Source: a virus (taxonomy: Duplodnaviria; Heunggongvirae; Uroviricota; Caudoviricetes). Taken from it: 4,919 nucleotides of DNA. Below, in pieces: positions 1 through 4,919 of this stretch. The first letter of the stretch is position 1. Every line of letters starts with the position of its first letter. A model generated the notes under the pieces. The model was not told the DNA's origin. It ran no database searches and was given only the letters and a program-made list of their open reading frames with translations. The DNA lies in the IMG/VR virus record IMGVR_UViG_2703718769_000001, positions 1 to 4,919 of that record. One strand, 5' to 3'. The position numbers were made by a program, and so were the translations under genes.

Positions 1-301
1 CTCTCCAGGAAACCCGGGGCGGTTCATCATGATTACTTGCAGGTTCGGCACCATGAAGCATGGCAGCACGGCAGGCGTTCCAGCCTTGAACCTTAGCTAT
101 TGCCACAACTGCATCGGTAAAGAACATTCTCGCGGTATCTGGCTCCGGAATTTCATCCGGCACATATGCAGGAGATGGCTTGTCAGCGAGCATTGACATC
201 AACGCGCAGATGGTGTCCTCGCTGATTTCAAACATACCACTGGCGTTCTGCGTCGAGGATTTAAGCTCTTCGATAATGCGCTCTTTCGTAAACTCAGCCA
301 T
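1..301 (-). CDS. Hypothetical protein, 3'-partial (runs off window start); begins MAEFTKERIIEELKSSTQNASGMFEISEDTICALMSMLADKPSPAYVPDE...
   Basis: ATG at 299-301 (minus strand), GGGGAG Shine-Dalgarno about 7 nt upstream overlapping the stop of the upstream gene; open for 100 codons to the window edge with no stop. Not in the ORF track because no stop is in the window. No family recognised. Confidence 0.5.
   Translation of the reverse strand, partial: MAEFTKERIIEELKSSTQNASGMFEISEDTICALMSMLADKPSPAYVPDEIPEPDTARMFFTDAVVAIAKVQGWNACRAAMLHGAEPASNHDEPPRVSWR
2..26. repeat. Left copy of terminal inverted repeat (tctccaggaaacccggggcggttca)
   Basis: Reverse complement of 4895-4919 is tctccaggattcccggggcggttca; 23/25 identical, mismatches at 11-12. 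Extends to about 31 nt with one indel. Contains a CCCGGG site. Confidence 0.8.
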
Positions 302-305
302 ATCC

Positions 306-842
306 CTACTCCCCATTGATGCTGACATTAACGCCAGCTTTGCGAATCTCATCGGCGCATCTGTTGATAATATTTCTGTGAAACTCACAAAAAATTTTCG
401 CCGACTGCGGCCCTAATGGGTGAACATCTTGCGCACGCGGCAGCACAACCTCCCGCGCCTCCAGCTCAGAAATCCGCTTCTCTGCTGCTTCCAGTTCAAC
501 ACGCAGCTTCCCTACCGTAAGAGCAATTTCCTCGTTCTCCTGGTCGCGGCGTTTGATGTATTGCTGTTTTCTTTCCAGCTCATCCAGCAGCGCCAAGACG
601 GTAGCCGGATTGGCTGCGGCGATGAATTCAGCATTGGCCTGCTGTTCCATTTGGAAATCTTCATCGAAACCGCTTTCTGGATGCGCTCCTTCAATTCTGC
701 AAATGGGAAGATATCCAGCAACTTCACGATGAATTAGCGCATCATCACCATCAAATCGGCCCTCTCCATATTCGAGCGACCACTCGCCACACGTTGCTTT
801 CTCTGCCTTTTCACGCAGTGCCTGATAGTCAATCTTGCTCAC
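306..842 (-). CDS. ead/Ea22-like lambdoid early protein with central coiled-coil (178 aa)
   Basis: GTG start at 840-842 preceded by AAGGAGG at 6-nt spacing. Translation MSKIDYQALREKAEKATCGEW...ANPATVLALLDELERKQQ... resembles the ead/Ea22-like family as recalled from memory; not verified by search. Confidence 0.55.
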   Translation of the reverse strand: MSKIDYQALREKAEKATCGEWSLEYGEGRFDGDDALIHREVAGYLPICRIEGAHPESGFDEDFQMEQQANAEFIAAANPATVLALLDELERKQQYIKRRDQENEEIALTVGKLRVELEAAEKRISELEAREVVLPRAQDVHPLGPQSAKIFCEFHRNIINRCADEIRKAGVNVSINGE

Positions 843-1323
843 TGGCCGCCTCCTTCATAAAAATAATCCAGTGGGTCTTGTCACCTTTTCCTGTTCGTTG
901 ACCGATAACAGGCTTTCTGTCGGTCAGTGCCAATATCTGGCGAACAGGTATTTGCGTTTCATTCCATTTAAAAATCAGAACGCCGTATGGCCGCAACACA
1001 CGAAAGGCTTCTTTAAATCCCTGCCGCAAATCATCACGCCAGGTATCTTTATTCAGCCGTCCATATTTCTTTCCCATCCAGGCGTTATCACCAACACGCT
1101 CAAGATGCGGAGGGTCGAATACAACAACCGGAAACGATGCGTCTGCAAATGGTAATGCACGAAAATCTGCTATCAGGTCAGGGCTAATTATCAGCCGTCG
1201 TCCATCACATAATGTGTGCTCTTCCTTTCTGATATCGCTAAATATCGCCCGGTCGTCATTCTTATCGAACCAGAACATGCGACTGCCACAGCACATGTCG
1301 AGGATAGCTGCATGTCCAGTCAC
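829..1323 (-). CDS. Small SAM-dependent methyltransferase, probable phage orphan DNA methyltransferase (164 aa)
   Basis: GTG start at 1321-1323 overlapping the upstream TGA stop (GTGA), AAGGAGG 6 nt upstream. Contains a motif-I-like segment ILDMCCGSRMF and a motif-IV-like VVVFDPPH about 60 residues later, then LIFKW and QRTGKGDKTHW. Precise class (N6-adenine, N4-cytosine, MT-A70-like) cannot be resolved by eye. Confidence 0.6.
   Translation of the reverse strand: MTGHAAILDMCCGSRMFWFDKNDDRAIFSDIRKEEHTLCDGRRLIISPDLIADFRALPFADASFPVVVFDPPHLERVGDNAWMGKKYGRLNKDTWRDDLRQGFKEAFRVLRPYGVLIFKWNETQIPVRQILALTDRKPVIGQRTGKGDKTHWIIFMKEAASEQD
849..855 (-). promoter_or_regulatory. Shine-Dalgarno AAGGAGG for the ead/Ea22-like gene
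   Basis: Minus-strand AAGGAGG lies 6 nt upstream of the GTG start at 842. Confidence 0.6.
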
Positions 1324-1718
1324 TGGTTGCCTCCTTTGCGAAGCTGGGCGGCTAACTCGTCACATATGTGCGTCAAAGAGCAAAGTTTGATTGATGGATG
1401 TTCGCGCATCATCTCTACCCCCTGCGCCCGCACTTCAGCCAGGAAGGCGTCGGTGGCCGGGGTTTTGCAGGACATTTGAATTGCCTTCTCTGTGTATAAA
1501 ACACCCGTTCGATTGGCGGTATACATGATGGTGTTTACAGCATCTTGATGTGCTGATTTCACAGCCTCAACTTCAGCAGCCAGCGCCGCGCACTTGGCCT
1601 CCGCTTCAGCAAATTTACGCACCAGATATTCAGCGTTTGTTTCGTTAACCTTTAAATCACTTGGGATGCATTTACCTTTCAGAAATCCATCCATCTCAAT
1701 TAGTGTCATTTGTTTCAT
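1320..1718 (-). CDS. Hypothetical coiled-coil protein (132 aa from ATG at 1718; track gives a GTG-start version to 1736)
   Basis: ATG at 1716-1718 overlaps the TGA stop of the upstream small ORF (ATGA coupling); GGAG/GGGAAG upstream. Translation [16 protein letters not shown]...[18 protein letters not shown]...; no family recognised. Start choice is uncertain. Confidence 0.5.
1330..1336 (-). promoter_or_regulatory. Shine-Dalgarno AAGGAGG for the methyltransferase gene
   Basis: Minus-strand AAGGAGG lies 6 nt upstream of the GTG start at 1323. Confidence 0.6.
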
Positions 1719-1879
1719 TTCTTCCCACTCCGCCACATCGCATTCAGATACTTGTTTTGATTCACTGATGGAAAAGAATTTCTCTTAAGCAATTCCTCTC
1801 TCGATGGCATTGGCTTTACGCGTTGGCGAATAATCATTTCTGCCGGAAGAATGCCGGGATTGTATGCAAGTCCTCTCAT
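1715..1879 (-). CDS. Small hypothetical protein (54 aa; [54 protein letters not shown])
   Basis: ATG at 1877-1879 with GAGGAA 7 nt upstream; an alternative in-frame ATG at 1896 overlaps the upstream gene's stop. Its stop overlaps the start of the downstream gene (ATGA). Fills an otherwise uncovered gap in a compact operon. Below the track's length cut-off as an ATG ORF. Confidence 0.35.
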
Positions 1880-1889
1880 GGTAAATTCC

Positions 1890-2186
1890 TCAGTCATTAC
1901 TGATAGCGCCATAGCGTGAGCGGTAATTACGCAGGCGCGGGTCGATATATTCAGGGAAGTGGGTATATGTGGCTTTGCGGAATGGTCGGATTGATGTCTG
2001 GTAAATTCGCTCGCGTTCTTCTTTCTCTGCAAGCCATATACAGTGGCGAAATTCCTTTTCCTCTTTCGTTTCCTGCGGTAGAGACATTATTCGATCGTAG
2101 TTTTTTCTGAATTTATCCAGCACCTCCGATACGGAATTGCCGGAACAGCGGCGCGCGTCATCCGCACCATACAGAGGCGCTGGCAT
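1890..2186 (-). CDS. Hypothetical phage protein (98 aa)
   Basis: ATG at 2184-2186 with AGGAG about 7 nt upstream, 13 nt after the HNH stop. Translation [44 protein letters not shown]...; no family recognised. Confidence 0.55.
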
Positions 2187-2199
2187 GATTTTCTCCTGA

Positions 2200-2679
2200 T
2201 TAAATTGCGTGAATAGCGTGACGAGGGAAGGGGAGAGTTACTGGTTCCTCGTCTGGGTAGATAGGTTTGTTATGTTTGTGCCACTCGAAATGACATGACT
2301 TGCAGAGCCACATCACATCGGTTGGTTTGCTGTAGTCGCAGTGGTGCGCCTGTGGTTTACATCCTGATCCGCAGCACTCACATTGTGGTGGTCGGATTAG
2401 CTTACCGTCGCGCAAAAAATTACCCACAATGATGTGGGCTTTTCTTTTCCATGGGTTGCTCTGAATGAACCGCTTTTTGGCTGCGTTACACCGTTCTCTT
2501 CCGCGTTCCGATGATTGATATTCTCTCCTTGCTGATACTCGATGTGGCAATCCAGCGCGTTCTTTGTCGTATTCAGCCAGGCAAGCCCGGCAAGCGGCAG
2601 TTAATCCATCTCTGGATGCTCTTCTGATTTGAAAGTCCCTTTCTTCCTTCTGTTGATGGCATCTTGAGCAGATTTTCAT
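2200..2679 (-). CDS. HNH endonuclease with N-terminal Cys-rich zinc-ribbon region (159 aa)
   Basis: ATG at 2677-2679 with GGAG about 7 nt upstream. C-terminal CECCGSGCKPQAHHCDYSKPTDVMWLCKSCHFEWH fits an HNH/zinc-finger nuclease core; N-terminal CSRCH...CRAC Cys pairs. Confidence 0.65.
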   Translation of the reverse strand: MKICSRCHQQKEERDFQIRRASRDGLTAACRACLAEYDKERAGLPHRVSARREYQSSERGRERCNAAKKRFIQSNPWKRKAHIIVGNFLRDGKLIRPPQCECCGSGCKPQAHHCDYSKPTDVMWLCKSCHFEWHKHNKPIYPDEEPVTLPFPRHAIHAI

Positions 2680-2688
2680 ATTCAGCTC

Positions 2689-3162
2689 CTAGAACGGAAT
2701 ATCCGAATCGTCGAAGTTCATAGGTGGTTCGCTGTGATTCCCATGCTGCTGAGATTGCTGTCTTTGTTGCTGGCCGTTATTTCGCTGAGGTGAAGACTGT
2801 TCATTGCTTCCTTGCTTGCCACCAAGCATTTGCATGGTTCCACCAACGCCCACGATAACTTCGGTAGTGAACCGATCCTGTCCGCTTTGATCCTGCCATT
2901 TTCTTGTCCGCAATTTTCCTTCAAGATAAACCTCAGAGCCTTTTCGCAGATATTCGCTGGCAATTTCTGCCAGTTTCCCGCTCATTACCACACGGTGCCA
3001 CTCCGTCTGCTCCTTTTGCTCTCCAGTTTGCTTATCACGCCATTGTTCTGACGTAGCAACTGTAAGGTTTGCAAATGCCGTTCCTGATGGTGAATATCTG
3101 ATTTCTGGATCATGCCCAAGGCGACCAATAATGATCACCTTATTTACGCCTCTGCTTGCCAT
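2689..3162 (-). CDS. ssb: Single-stranded DNA-binding protein, phage-encoded (157 aa)
   Basis: Translation [23 protein letters not shown]...[52 protein letters not shown]...DDSDIPF shows an SSB OB-fold core, Gly/Gln-rich linker and acidic C-terminal tail ending DIPF. ATG immediately follows the TAA of the upstream gene. Confidence 0.9.
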
Positions 3163-3870
3163 TTATGCCGCCTGTTTTAGCTCGTTAACTCTGATGTTCA
3201 TTACCTGAACGCATTTAGCCTGCGCCTCCTCGTTTCCAGCCATTAATTGCCAGTCACGCTGATAACGCTCGATGAGTTTTTTCTTGTCAGTTTCTGTTGA
3301 CGCATAATCGCTGAAGTCTTTCAGGATTTGTTCGCAGTCAACCGATGGAGATTTCTGGTTGGTATTTTCTGGTGATGGTTTGTTATCTGATGCTGGGATT
3401 GCCCATCCCGGCAGCGATGGAGGGAGCCAGTAAAATCCTGTTCCATCCTTCAGTTTTGCCCTGTGCCACCCCTGCTTTTTATCGAGAGATGTTTGTGCGA
3501 AACCTTCCTCAAGGTTATACAGATACCGACCGATTCCCCACTGAACGGCAGCGCGCTTCATTGCACCGGAACGACCACCTTTGACGGCTTCTACCTGCGT
3601 GTTTTCAGCAGCATCCCATTTGGTTACCCATTCGGAATCAATCTTTATTGATATGCCGCATTCAACGCCGCCGTTGTTGGGAATATCGCGGTATTCATTG
3701 CGCCATCCTGCTTTGCCGCAAACATCGTCCAGGCGTTTCATGATTGCCCGGTTCGTGACATAAGCCAGCACCATAGCCCACACCTTGCCATCGCGTGTTT
3801 TACCGCTTTGCTGTATTCGCCATTCGATATCTTCAGGGCTGAATGGCTCATCGAATTTGTTCAAATCCAT
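3163..3870 (-). CDS. Rad52/Sak-type single-strand annealing protein, phage recombinase (235 aa)
   Basis: ATG at 3868-3870 with GAGGTG upstream. N-terminal FDEPFSPEDIEWRIQQ...AMVLAYVTNRAIMKRLDDVCGKAGWRNEY matches the pattern recalled for phage Rad52-family annealing proteins; sits directly upstream of ssb. Family assignment is from memory. Confidence 0.65.
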   Translation of the reverse strand: MDLNKFDEPFSPEDIEWRIQQSGKTRDGKVWAMVLAYVTNRAIMKRLDDVCGKAGWRNEYRDIPNNGGVECGISIKIDSEWVTKWDAAENTQVEAVKGGRSGAMKRAAVQWGIGRYLYNLEEGFAQTSLDKKQGWHRAKLKDGTGFYWLPPSLPGWAIPASDNKPSPENTNQKSPSVDCEQILKDFSDYASTETDKKKLIERYQRDWQLMAGNEEAQAKCVQVMNIRVNELKQAA

Positions 3871-3878
3871 AATTCACC

Positions 3879-4049
3879 TCAGAATGGACACGGCCCAAGG
3901 AAATAACGCTGATTTAATACTTCGACTCGGGACAAATTAAGGCATACCCGCATTCCTTCGCGGTCACCATTATGGCGATACCAGAGAGCTTTCTGAGTGT
4001 ACATGCGCCTCTGTAACTTGCTCTCCTTCACTGTGGTTGCAAGTGACAT
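3879..4049 (-). CDS. Small basic hypothetical protein (56 aa; MSLATTVKESKLQRRMYTQKALWYRHNGDREGMRVCLNLSRVEVLNQRYFLGPCPF) at the position of gam/arf in lambda/P22
   Basis: ATG at 4047-4049 with AAGGAG at 6-nt spacing (4056-4061); its TGA stop overlaps the Shine-Dalgarno of the annealing-protein gene. A competing 52-aa ORF (3970..4128) starts on an ATGA overlap with kil, so the true frame is unresolved. Confidence 0.35.
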   Translation of the reverse strand: MSLATTVKESKLQRRMYTQKALWYRHNGDREGMRVCLNLSRVEVLNQRYFLGPCPF

Positions 4050-4124
4050 GAATATCTCCTTCGTTACCGATTAATTCTTTCATCTGACGAATGAATTCTT
4101 CGTCTGACCAGTTATCTGTAAAAC

Positions 4125-4277
4125 TCATTTCCTGCGATACCACGGAAGGTTGATAGCTGATTTCATCGCTTTATTTGCTTCAAGCCACATTTTGGAATCA
4201 CCAATAAATCTGGCTATTACTGCTTTGTTCTGTGCAGCGCGAAGCATCTGGTGATTGATGTCTATTTCATTGCGCAT
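4125..4277 (-). CDS. kil: Kil-like host cell-division inhibitor peptide (50 aa)
   Basis: ATG at 4275-4277, overlapping the 3' end of the cIII homolog by 16 nt. Translation MRNEIDINHQMLRAAQNKAVIARFIGDSKMWLEANKAMKSAINLPWYRRK; the IA.FIGD.KM..EA core resembles lambda Kil as recalled, and the position right after cIII matches lambda. Confidence 0.55.
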   Translation of the reverse strand: MRNEIDINHQMLRAAQNKAVIARFIGDSKMWLEANKAMKSAINLPWYRRK

Positions 4278-4393
4278 AATAAGACCTCAACTCTTTTCCA
4301 TCCGTCACGTAATTTACGGGTGATTCGTTCAAGTAAAGATTCATTTAGTTGGAAGGCACCCATGCGAGCGCCTCCCGCGATTGCGTAAATCAT
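4262..4393 (-). CDS. cIII: cIII homolog, FtsH/HflB protease inhibitor (43 aa)
   Basis: ATG at 4391-4393 with AAGGAA 7 nt upstream. Translation MIYAIAGGARMGAFQLNESLLERITRKLRDGWKRVEVLLCAMK contains the ESLLERITRKLRDGWKR helix recalled from lambda cIII. Below the track's 60-aa cut-off. Confidence 0.8.
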   Translation of the reverse strand: MIYAIAGGARMGAFQLNESLLERITRKLRDGWKRVEVLLCAMK

Positions 4394-4417: not shown

Positions 4418-4919
4418 TTAGTAGGTTATTTTTGTTGCGAATACTTCGCCTTTTACGATGGCTGTTATGATATTTTTAGCAACATCTTCTGATGCACCAA
4501 CCTTGATAAGGTCAGCAAGTATTTTGTTATTTACTTCTTTCCGGTGAGCTTTATCCTTTGCTCTACGCTCTTCTTCGTCCTTGATTCTTTTTTCTTCTGC
4601 TATTCTGGCTTGCTCTTTTGCTTCAGCCTCGCGCCGGATTCGTTCAGCCTCCTCCTGTGCTTTTCGGCGTTCTGCTTCAATTGCCGCATGCTTTTCTCTT
4701 TCAGCTCGTTCTGCTGCCTCTTTTGCTTCGCGCTGTGCTCGTTGCTCGGCTTCAATGCGTTCACGCTCTGCACGTTCCGCTGCGGCCTTAGCTTCTGCTT
4801 CTCGCCTTGCTGCTGCTTCAATTTCGGCTTTTGCCTTTGCTTCGGCTTCTGCTCTGGCTTTCTCTTCAGCTTCTCTTTTTAAGCGTTCTTCATGTGAACC
4901 GCCCCGGGAATCCTGGAGA
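4418..4919 (-). CDS. Charged low-complexity coiled-coil protein, 5'-partial (start beyond window end); superficially TolA domain II-like
   Basis: Minus-strand frame is open from the window edge for 166 codons to tandem TAA TAA at 4415-4420. Translation ...EAEEKARAEAEAKAKAEIEAAARREAEAKAAAERAERERIEAEQRAQREAKEAAERAEREKHAAIEAERRKAQEEAERIRREAEAKEQARIAEEKRIKDEEERRAKDKAHRKEVNNKILADLIKVGASEDVAKNIITAIVKGEVFATKITY. Not in the ORF track because no start is in the window. Confidence 0.55.
   Translation of the reverse strand, partial: LQDSRGGSHEERLKREAEEKARAEAEAKAKAEIEAAARREAEAKAAAERAERERIEAEQRAQREAKEAAERAEREKHAAIEAERRKAQEEAERIRREAEAKEQARIAEEKRIKDEEERRAKDKAHRKEVNNKILADLIKVGASEDVAKNIITAIVKGEVFATKITY
4540..4890. 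repeat. Low-complexity pyrimidine-rich (plus strand) cryptic simple-sequence tract, GCTTC/GCTGC-type units, encoding the E/A/R/K repeat region
   Basis: Visible reiteration of gcttc, gctgc, ttctgc and cttttgc motifs; all three frames on both strands are low-complexity, which explains the spurious track ORFs 4544..4882(+) and 4600..4821(-). Confidence 0.6.
4895..4919. repeat. Right copy of terminal inverted repeat (tgaaccgccccgggaatcctggaga)
   Basis: Inverted partner of 2-26 (23/25). Lies inside the 5'-partial coiled-coil ORF. Confidence 0.8.

Follow-up and report, generated by a model that had tools for sequence, protein, structure and literature searches.

Phage P22 carries, in this order, abc2, ORF56 (a DUF2737 family gene) and eaE, downstream of erf, abc1 and arf. 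The first of these has been accounted for in detail, and the structure of its product with RecBCD has been solved (8B1T). P22 Abc2 binds the RecC subunit, contacting it through its N-terminal helices (residues 3-66), while the host protein PpiB engages Pro68; RecBCD then no longer responds to Chi, its helicase activity remaining intact, and the proposed role of Abc2 is to turn RecBCD into a Chi-independent enzyme that supplies the phage recombinase (PMC9836394). The complex forms when RecB, RecC and RecD are the sole proteins expressed along with Abc2, which means that no further phage protein is needed for it; Abc2 by itself could not be purified (PMC9836394).

A second version of this gene arrangement is found in phages HK446 and HK75. 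In HK446 the order is gp30 (Abc2), gp29 (an inserted gene), gp28 (DUF2737) and gp27; HK75 has the same module (gp30-gp28). HK446 gp27 is Oad2 (OLD anti-defence 2), a relative of P22 EaE that binds and inhibits P2 OLD, an abortive-infection nuclease that becomes active once RecBCD is compromised; the homologue in HK75, at 54% identity to Oad2, does not inhibit P2 OLD (bioRxiv 10.64898/2026.07.10.737580). (The identity of HK446 gp27 to HK75 gp28 is likewise 54% in our comparison, which confirms which genes that preprint means.) A screen of an HK446 library recovered gp27 alone as an OLD inhibitor, and the "Rec locus" constructs that trigger OLD do not include DUF2737 (bioRxiv 10.64898/2026.07.10.737580). 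DUF2737 is thus unneeded for inhibiting OLD or for triggering it. The reported trigger of P2 OLD in HK75 is Gp33 (bioRxiv 10.64898/2026.07.10.737580).

The lambda exo-xis ORFs (orf60a, orf63, orf61, ea22) offer a looser parallel: they too are small early-left genes, conserved and non-essential, that lie directly behind the recombination genes, overlap at their junctions and give way to Ea22-like coiled-coil proteins. They have no sequence relationship to the genes described here, however; orf60a is a DUF1317 gene, and lambda uses Gam where the present locus uses Abc2.

How does that locus compare? The window (the whole stretch of 4,919 nt that was analysed) has its best DNA matches in IME10, Sf6, N7 and HK75, and all of its genes lie on one strand in a single closely packed run (Table 1), in the order cIII, kil, annealing protein, SSB, HNH, abc2, DUF2737, EaE-like gene, methyltransferase and ead. 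It is an early-left (PL) operon from a phage or prophage of lambdoid or P22-like type, and the three genes at issue, of 98, 54 and 132 codons, form the distal end of its P22/ES18-type recombination module. A survey describes the ES18 type as anti-RecBCD protein, SSB, nuclease and annealing protein (PMC12315714), and the module in the window has the same composition. Like P22, the window holds the three families in the same order, but upstream of them stand a Rad52-like annealing protein, SSB and an HNH nuclease, without abc1 or arf. Like HK446 and HK75, it has a Gp33-like gene upstream and a gene after DUF2737 that overlaps it by 4 nt; HK446 differs in the extra gene between abc2 and DUF2737. 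The Gp33 homologue is the first of two small overlapping ORFs, its translation closely matching HK75 and HK446 Gp33 over about the first 44 residues and diverging beyond; the second ORF was rejected as a candidate.

Table 1. Features of the window, with positions counted from its first letter
Feature	Position	Strand	Basis
cIII	4262-4393	(-)	profile search
kil	4125-4277	(-)	profile search
Two small overlapping ORFs	3970-4128 and 3879-4049	(-)	
HK75/HK446 Gp33 homologue	3970-4128	(-)	translation comparison
Rad52/Erf-like single-strand annealing protein	3163-3870	(-)	Pfam Rad52_Rad22 E=5e-26, phrog_1097 E=3.5e-130
Phage SSB	2689-3162	(-)	Pfam SSB E=1.7e-38
HNH-like endonuclease of the recombination module	2200-2679	(-)	phrog_2340 "endonuclease" E=1.2e-46; = Sf6 gp26
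abc2, anti-RecBCD protein 2, 98 aa	1890-2186	(-)	PF11043, phrog_656, PDB 8B1T
GAGGAA, Shine-Dalgarno of the DUF2737 gene	1886-1891	(-)	read from sequence; overlaps abc2 TGA 1892-1890
DUF2737 family gene, 54 aa	1715-1879	(-)	PF10930, phrog_1117
EaE/Oad2-family gene, 132 aa	1320-1718	(-)	phrog_614, match to HK446 gp27
Orphan methyltransferase	829-1323	(-)	profile search
Ead/Ea22-like protein	306-842	(-)	profile search

A preliminary description of the three-gene segment had its ORFs, coordinates and codon overlaps right, as a reading of the minus strand confirms. It also took the two smaller products for unknown proteins and saw no motif that would support a specific call, and there the family matches say otherwise. 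The 98-aa protein matches Pfam PF11043 (Anti-RecBCD_p2) over its full length, residues 1-98 on profile positions 1-97 (E=4.1e-61; 203.6 bits, with the curated cut-off at 25), phrog_656 "abc2 anti-RecBCD" (E=2.3e-56) and chain A of 8B1T, which is P22 Abc2 itself (E=1.8e-55). Its identity to P22 Abc2 is 92% (tblastn); residues 1-66 differ by three substitutions only (A11P, R32L, S65A), and Pro68, in the setting I-R-P68-F-R-K, is present and invariant in an alignment of five variants. RefSeq names the product "phage anti-RecBCD protein", and the gene sits where such a gene belongs, in a packed run with the annealing protein, SSB and HNH genes downstream of cIII and kil. By these matches the 98-aa protein is Abc2, the P22-type anti-RecBCD protein.

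The 54-aa protein matches PF10930 along positions 1-52 of a 53-position profile (E=3.8e-31; 107.2 bits against a cut-off of 25) and phrog_1117 (E=6e-38). RefSeq annotates it as "DUF2737 family protein", and by sequence it is a member of that family, whose known counterparts include P22 ORF56 (75% identical), HK620 HkaI, HK97 gp38 and Sf6 gp23. The family is small: a search of 1.84 billion proteins, clustered at 50% identity, yielded 60 representatives with E<=1e-3, of which at least P0156 is a chance match to a repeat protein, and its named members come from Escherichia, Shigella and Salmonella. The preliminary description had left room for the small ORF to prove unconserved in relatives, or for the three genes to occur independently of one another; neither was found. 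Against P22 the synonymous sites of the ORF are saturated (pS 0.77) at a pN of 0.18, the two alleles being anciently diverged, and against more distant homologues dN/dS is 0.13-0.22. Judged by these substitution patterns, the small ORF is a genuine gene and is kept by purifying selection.

What is conserved in this protein of about 55 aa is a core of about 25 residues, P-x-P-[ST]-R-E-E-L-x-x-R-N-S-F ... N-[KR]-[YH]-L, at residues 23-45 of the window protein, followed by a basic tail. Among 24-26 diverse members R33 is invariant, and conservation reaches 90% or more at E29, N34, S35, F36, N42 and L45. With a net charge of +8 and a pI of 11 the window protein is strongly basic, a character that the family shares (medians +5 and about 10). 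AlphaFold2, given an alignment of 24 sequences, predicts three short helices with low confidence (pLDDT 67, pTM 0.26), which would fit a peptide that takes up its fold on a partner. A sequence search of the PDB with DUF2737 gave chance matches only (E about 0.3), and no functional study of DUF2737, HkaI or ORF56 turned up in the literature searched. Lambda orf60a was considered as a homologue and rejected (hhalign probability 0.1%).

The third protein, of 132 aa, is placed by sequence in the family of P22 EaE and HK446 Oad2: it is 42% identical to HK446 gp27 (E=3e-34), 45% to HK75 gp28 and 34% to P22 EaE (E=4e-10), and is a member of phrog_614, with no match in Pfam, NCBIfam or PADLOC. What it has in common with Oad2 is an N-terminal segment of 38 nearly identical residues, a 13-residue motif and the C-terminus QLRKGGNQ; the middle of the two proteins is unrelated. 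The same N-terminus heads the gene after DUF2737 in 118 of 148 loci, on genes of 42-301 aa in total length, so that the family can be described as a mosaic with a constant head. Inhibition of P2 OLD by the window protein is accordingly an uncertain prospect that cannot be assumed at 42% identity.

In what sense are the three genes coupled? The preliminary description had linked them by overlapping stop and start codons, and one of the two links stands: the TGA of the 54-aa ORF (1717-1715) overlaps the ATG (1718-1716) of the 132-aa ORF, which ends at 1320, in the 4-nt sequence ATGA. The other link is between abc2, which is read from 2186 to its TGA stop at 1892-1890, and the small ORF, for which there are two candidate starts: an upstream ATG (1897-1895) that overlaps the abc2 stop (ATGACTGA), and a second ATG (1879-1877) six codons inside the ORF, preceded by the GAGGAA at 1891-1886. 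It is from the second that the product counts 54 aa. P22 has no upstream ATG at all (AATAACTGAGGAG...ATG); its abc2/small-gene junction shows the same arrangement, TGAGGAG-N8-ATG, with the abc2 stop codon in the ribosome-binding site and the same 10-nt spacer. Homologues that lie in unrelated contexts, without abc2 upstream, have a start methionine that aligns with the second ATG, and RefSeq annotates the 54-aa product 10 nt past abc2. The first ATG, then, is probably not the DUF2737 start. The absence of that ATG from P22, the starts of the homologues and the RefSeq annotation together give a 10-nt spacer between abc2 and DUF2737, with the abc2 stop codon inside a Shine-Dalgarno sequence and no genuine stop-to-start overlap.

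Nor is the spacing of these genes special to them. Counted from cIII as far as the gene beyond ead, the 12 junctions measure -16, -4, -80, +8, 0, +9, +13, +10 (or -8), -4, -4, -14 and +3 nt; close packing, with at most 80 nt of overlap and at most 13 nt of gap, is therefore a trait of the whole operon. The junctions of the trio are no tighter than those around them and reflect the ordinary compaction of a polycistronic early operon. A search of the window for promoter-like sites found only one, distant from the trio, with none between 1300 and 2300, and an Rfam search of the window gave no match.

Proximity aside, abc2 and DUF2737 do keep company. DUF2737 lies just downstream of every Abc2 homologue examined: about 130 loci, a set that takes in the distant mEp021 type, together with P22, ST104 and one divergent prophage. 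Among the matches listed for IMG/VR loci found with the window Abc2, DUF2737 is downstream in all 78 that could be assessed; among those found with DUF2737, the abc2-DUF2737 pair is present in 75 of 75 assessable, Abc2 being 60-100% identical in these and the spacer 10 nt. The gene follows abc2 in six of six loci from species-representative genomes (Escherichia, Shimwellia, Intestinirhabdus), in both P22 and ST104, and in 46 of the 46 mEp021-type loci among the matches listed, a type in which Abc2 (E=4e-11) and DUF2737 (E=2.6e-10) are detectable only by profile. In the divergent prophage (locus L177) it follows a divergent Abc2 with one gene inserted between; a scan of viral contigs with that Abc2 found no relatives. 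The phage database holds 232 records with Abc2, 230 with full-length DUF2737.

The linkage runs in one direction only, DUF2737 also occurring without Abc2. About 470 further phage records have a DUF2737-like gene and no Abc2 match; most are virulent Guernseyvirinae (Jerseyvirus, Kagunavirus), with the gene among their small early genes. In divergent prophages, homologues follow RecT modules of three compositions: RecT with Gp157 and a methylase, with YqaJ and a small HTH-like protein, or with Gp157 and a small HTH-like protein. Others come after a Dam methylase or, in the nin region, after replication genes. The contigs of four further divergent DUF2737 proteins were too short to show their surroundings. 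(The 97-aa proteins upstream of DUF2737 at the nin-region loci L168-L170 were considered as candidates for Abc2; they are of the right size and of unrelated sequence.)

Within the pair itself there is considerable freedom. The spacer is 10 nt in 50 of the 78 listed loci, and in 20 an Sf6 gp24-like gene of about 290 nt is inserted, a finding that, with the packing of the whole operon, takes away the force of coupling as a sign of partnership, as the preliminary description had read it. In 8 of the 78 a 77-nt frameshifting deletion disrupts DUF2737 beside an intact abc2; DUF2737 is dispensable at least in resident prophages. Among the matches listed, DUF2737 proteins at least 98% identical are paired with Abc2 proteins 60-100% identical; between the window and P22, dS is 0.32 for abc2, against saturation for DUF2737. 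This reassortment of alleles and unequal divergence argue against a tightly co-evolving interface between the two proteins. The pattern of linkage points instead to selection for having both functions. As for the trio, the expectation that it travels as a unit is borne out by the unbroken presence of DUF2737 after abc2 and by the N-terminus of the 132-aa protein that commonly comes next.

Very probably, then, the locus encodes three separate proteins, each acting on a target in the host or in a competitor, with no mutually interacting pair among them and with junctions that are those of a normally compacted operon. Their roles would be the following. 1) Abc2 would bind RecC, with PpiB engaging Pro68, and leave RecBCD blind to Chi, a mechanism worked out for P22 and extended to the window by homology. 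2) RecBCD so redirected would make single-stranded DNA available to the annealing protein that the phage itself encodes, presumably the Rad52-like protein in the window, acting together with SSB. 3) DUF2737, starting 10 nt past abc2, would use a ribosome-binding site of its own and may act through its conserved core on a component of the host; the target can be guessed from position alone, and since the gene always follows abc2 and ends other recombination modules, we infer that it is most likely to be sought where phage recombination, RecBCD and host immunity come into conflict. 4) The 132-aa protein might plausibly block an OLD-type nuclease, as its relative Oad2 does P2 OLD.

Could the linkage of DUF2737 to abc2 be purely historical? 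DUF2737 would in that case be an unrelated, non-essential "ea"-type early gene stranded at a mosaic boundary beside abc2, on the model of the lambda exo-xis ORFs, which influence the choice between lysis and lysogeny. Its position is that of lambda orf60a, straight after the recombination genes and ahead of ea22-like genes; the lambda exo-xis genes are conserved and non-essential and affect lysogenisation (PMC6213356, PMC7093339); and DUF2737 also turns up elsewhere in operons as well as in virulent phages, and has been lost by deletion in some prophages. Set against this is an asymmetry in how the region recombines: non-homologous replacement is common immediately upstream of abc2, where the adjoining 300 nt of 153 loci sort into 9 clusters of unrelated sequence, yet none was seen between abc2 and DUF2737 in about 130 loci. 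The pair moreover persists where both genes have diverged past easy recognition, and DUF2737 is not a homologue of orf60a. An accident of history is a possible explanation, on balance a doubtful one.

At the other pole, DUF2737 may be a functional companion of Abc2 that takes part in the RecBCD conflict, whether by acting on RecBCD, by acting on some other target in recombination or repair, or by shielding the phage from immunity that senses the manipulation of RecBCD. These variants are, even taken jointly, unlikely. Companionship would, if true, explain why DUF2737 is kept directly downstream in every Abc2 lineage, why it occurs alone in phages without Gam or Abc2 (the RecT/YqaJ-type prophages and the virulent Guernseyvirinae), and why it lies between a hijacker of RecBCD and a gene of the anti-OLD family.

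A more specific proposal makes DUF2737 a direct physical cofactor, a third "Abc" protein, which would stabilise Abc2 or join it on RecBCD. Deeply divergent Abc2 lineages all have the gene downstream, the flank on the other side of abc2 is freely exchanged, Abc2 alone could not be purified (PMC9836394), and an abc2 stop codon within the DUF2737 ribosome-binding site would allow coupled translation. Yet Abc2 alone forms the RecBCD complex and alters RecBCD activity (PMC9836394), DUF2737 is widespread where there is no Abc2, a gene intervenes between the two in the 20 listed loci, their alleles reassort freely, and the 8 frameshifted copies of DUF2737 stand beside an abc2 that is intact. A cofactor of this kind is improbable. 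Least credible by far is the suggestion, raised in the preliminary description, that the 98-aa and 54-aa proteins (with or without the 132-aa one) are a toxin-antitoxin-like or inhibitor-target pair held in stoichiometry by translational coupling: two small, adjacent, co-conserved genes with tightly spaced, apparently coupled junctions do resemble a type II locus, but Pfam, NCBIfam and PADLOC detect no toxin, antitoxin or defence-system domain in them, they lie without a promoter-like site of their own in the middle of a uniformly packed 12-gene operon, the inserted gene breaks the coupling in a quarter of close relatives, DUF2737 lives without Abc2 in hundreds of phages and several prophage lineages and so is not obligately paired, and the targets known for these families are RecC, a subunit of a host enzyme, and P2 OLD rather than one another.

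On the preferred reading, of three separate proteins with targets outside the trio, the features of this segment are real, already annotated and largely explained: they are known genes of a well-studied phage module. What goes beyond existing annotation is the constancy with which DUF2737 follows abc2, of which no mention was found in the literature searched, including the section of the recombination-module survey that deals with possible extra module genes (PMC12315714). The recombination loci of lambdoid phages have come to be viewed as hotspots at which manipulators of RecBCD, the immunity that guards RecBCD, and inhibitors of that immunity meet (bioRxiv 10.64898/2026.07.10.737580). DUF2737 belongs to such a hotspot, was present beside Abc2 in each case examined, and is conceivably a missing component of the Abc2 system.

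The Abc2-DUF2737 pair extends to the non-lambdoid mEp021 group: in mEp021 itself (locus L190, 1333-1853) a very divergent Abc2-like gene is followed, after a spacing of 14 nt, by a gene for a 74-aa protein bearing the DUF2737 core, with an annotated terminator after it, and the two are found together in all 46 related contigs (L194-L239). Nearer to the window the junction between the two genes accommodates an insertion: in 20 of the 78 IMG/VR loci, about a quarter of the close relatives, a gene of ~290 nt sits exactly between abc2 and DUF2737. It resembles P2 orf83 and carries the automatic annotation "replication initiation protein".

The two genes also occur apart. Eight related prophage loci (L039, L044, L048, L049, L050, L064, L065 and L079) share an identical 77-nt deletion within DUF2737, bounded by short TTGC repeats (about 4308-4392 in L044), which leaves a remnant reading MRGLA-stop and the adjoining abc2 intact. 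Three database proteins (P0121, P0123 and P0124) have DUF2737 fused to an Erf N-terminus or to an alternative frame of the abc2 3' end; these entries suggest that DUF2737 is retained without an intact abc2, either in deletion variants or as an artefact of gene calling. DUF2737 without Abc2 is found in ~470 phage records, the majority of them virulent Guernseyvirinae (Jerseyvirus, Kagunavirus). In these phages, which yield no Abc2 match, the homologue (L162:2941-3096; L163:3001-3168) lies downstream of the lysis cassette, among small early genes and close to a NinH gene.

Abc2 itself falls into distinct allelic types over residues ~22-66 (alignment A1; loci L129, L130, L144 and L156; L177:2907-3206; L190:1333-1614), and it is this same region that makes the RecC contact in the solved structure. 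Conservation is highest in the C-terminal tail (16 residues), also among homologues seen only by profile, and that tail is disordered in the structure.

Two further genes of the window are listed in the table along with the inserted gene. The methyltransferase, which is probably a phage anti-restriction methylase, has a GTG start, with a 4-nt overlap between it and the stop of the 132-aa gene. According to a 2026 preprint (bioRxiv 10.64898/2026.07.10.737580), Gp33 sets off the P2 OLD defence nuclease and may be a new manipulator of RecBCD. The ORF of its homologue overlaps a conserved 56-aa ORF (3879-4049) by 80 nt, an overlap that the Sf6 annotation shares; the 56-aa ORF was considered as a Gp33 relative and rejected as unrelated.

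Features located in the window and in compared phages
Feature	Location	Strand	Match
Methyltransferase, class I SAM-dependent, 164 aa	829-1323	minus	PADLOC type II and orphan methyltransferase models, E=3e-74
Gp33 homologue, 52 aa	3970-4128	minus	close to HK75/HK446 Gp33 over first ~44 residues
Inserted ~290-nt gene, Sf6	L001:2423-2713		Sf6 gp24
Inserted ~290-nt gene, HK446	L193:4194-4484		HK446 gp29

The termini of the window (1-26 and 4895-4919) are inverted repeats of 25 nt with 92% complementarity. The phage matches, which end at 36 and 4894, all lack them. On the right-hand side the 25 nt are the left-end marker of an IS3-family element and occur more than 40,000 times in E. coli genomes. 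It therefore seems that the prophage segment lies between two IS copies, which cut short the genes at either end; the whole window is found in no complete E. coli genome.

What follows DUF2737 (1320-1718 in the window; loci L002-L160) has a near-constant N-terminus of ~40 residues and, among related prophages, more than 50 different total lengths, from 42 to 301 aa. This gene, of the Oad2/EaE/Ea22 group, is thus an extreme mosaic, constant at its head and variable in its tail.
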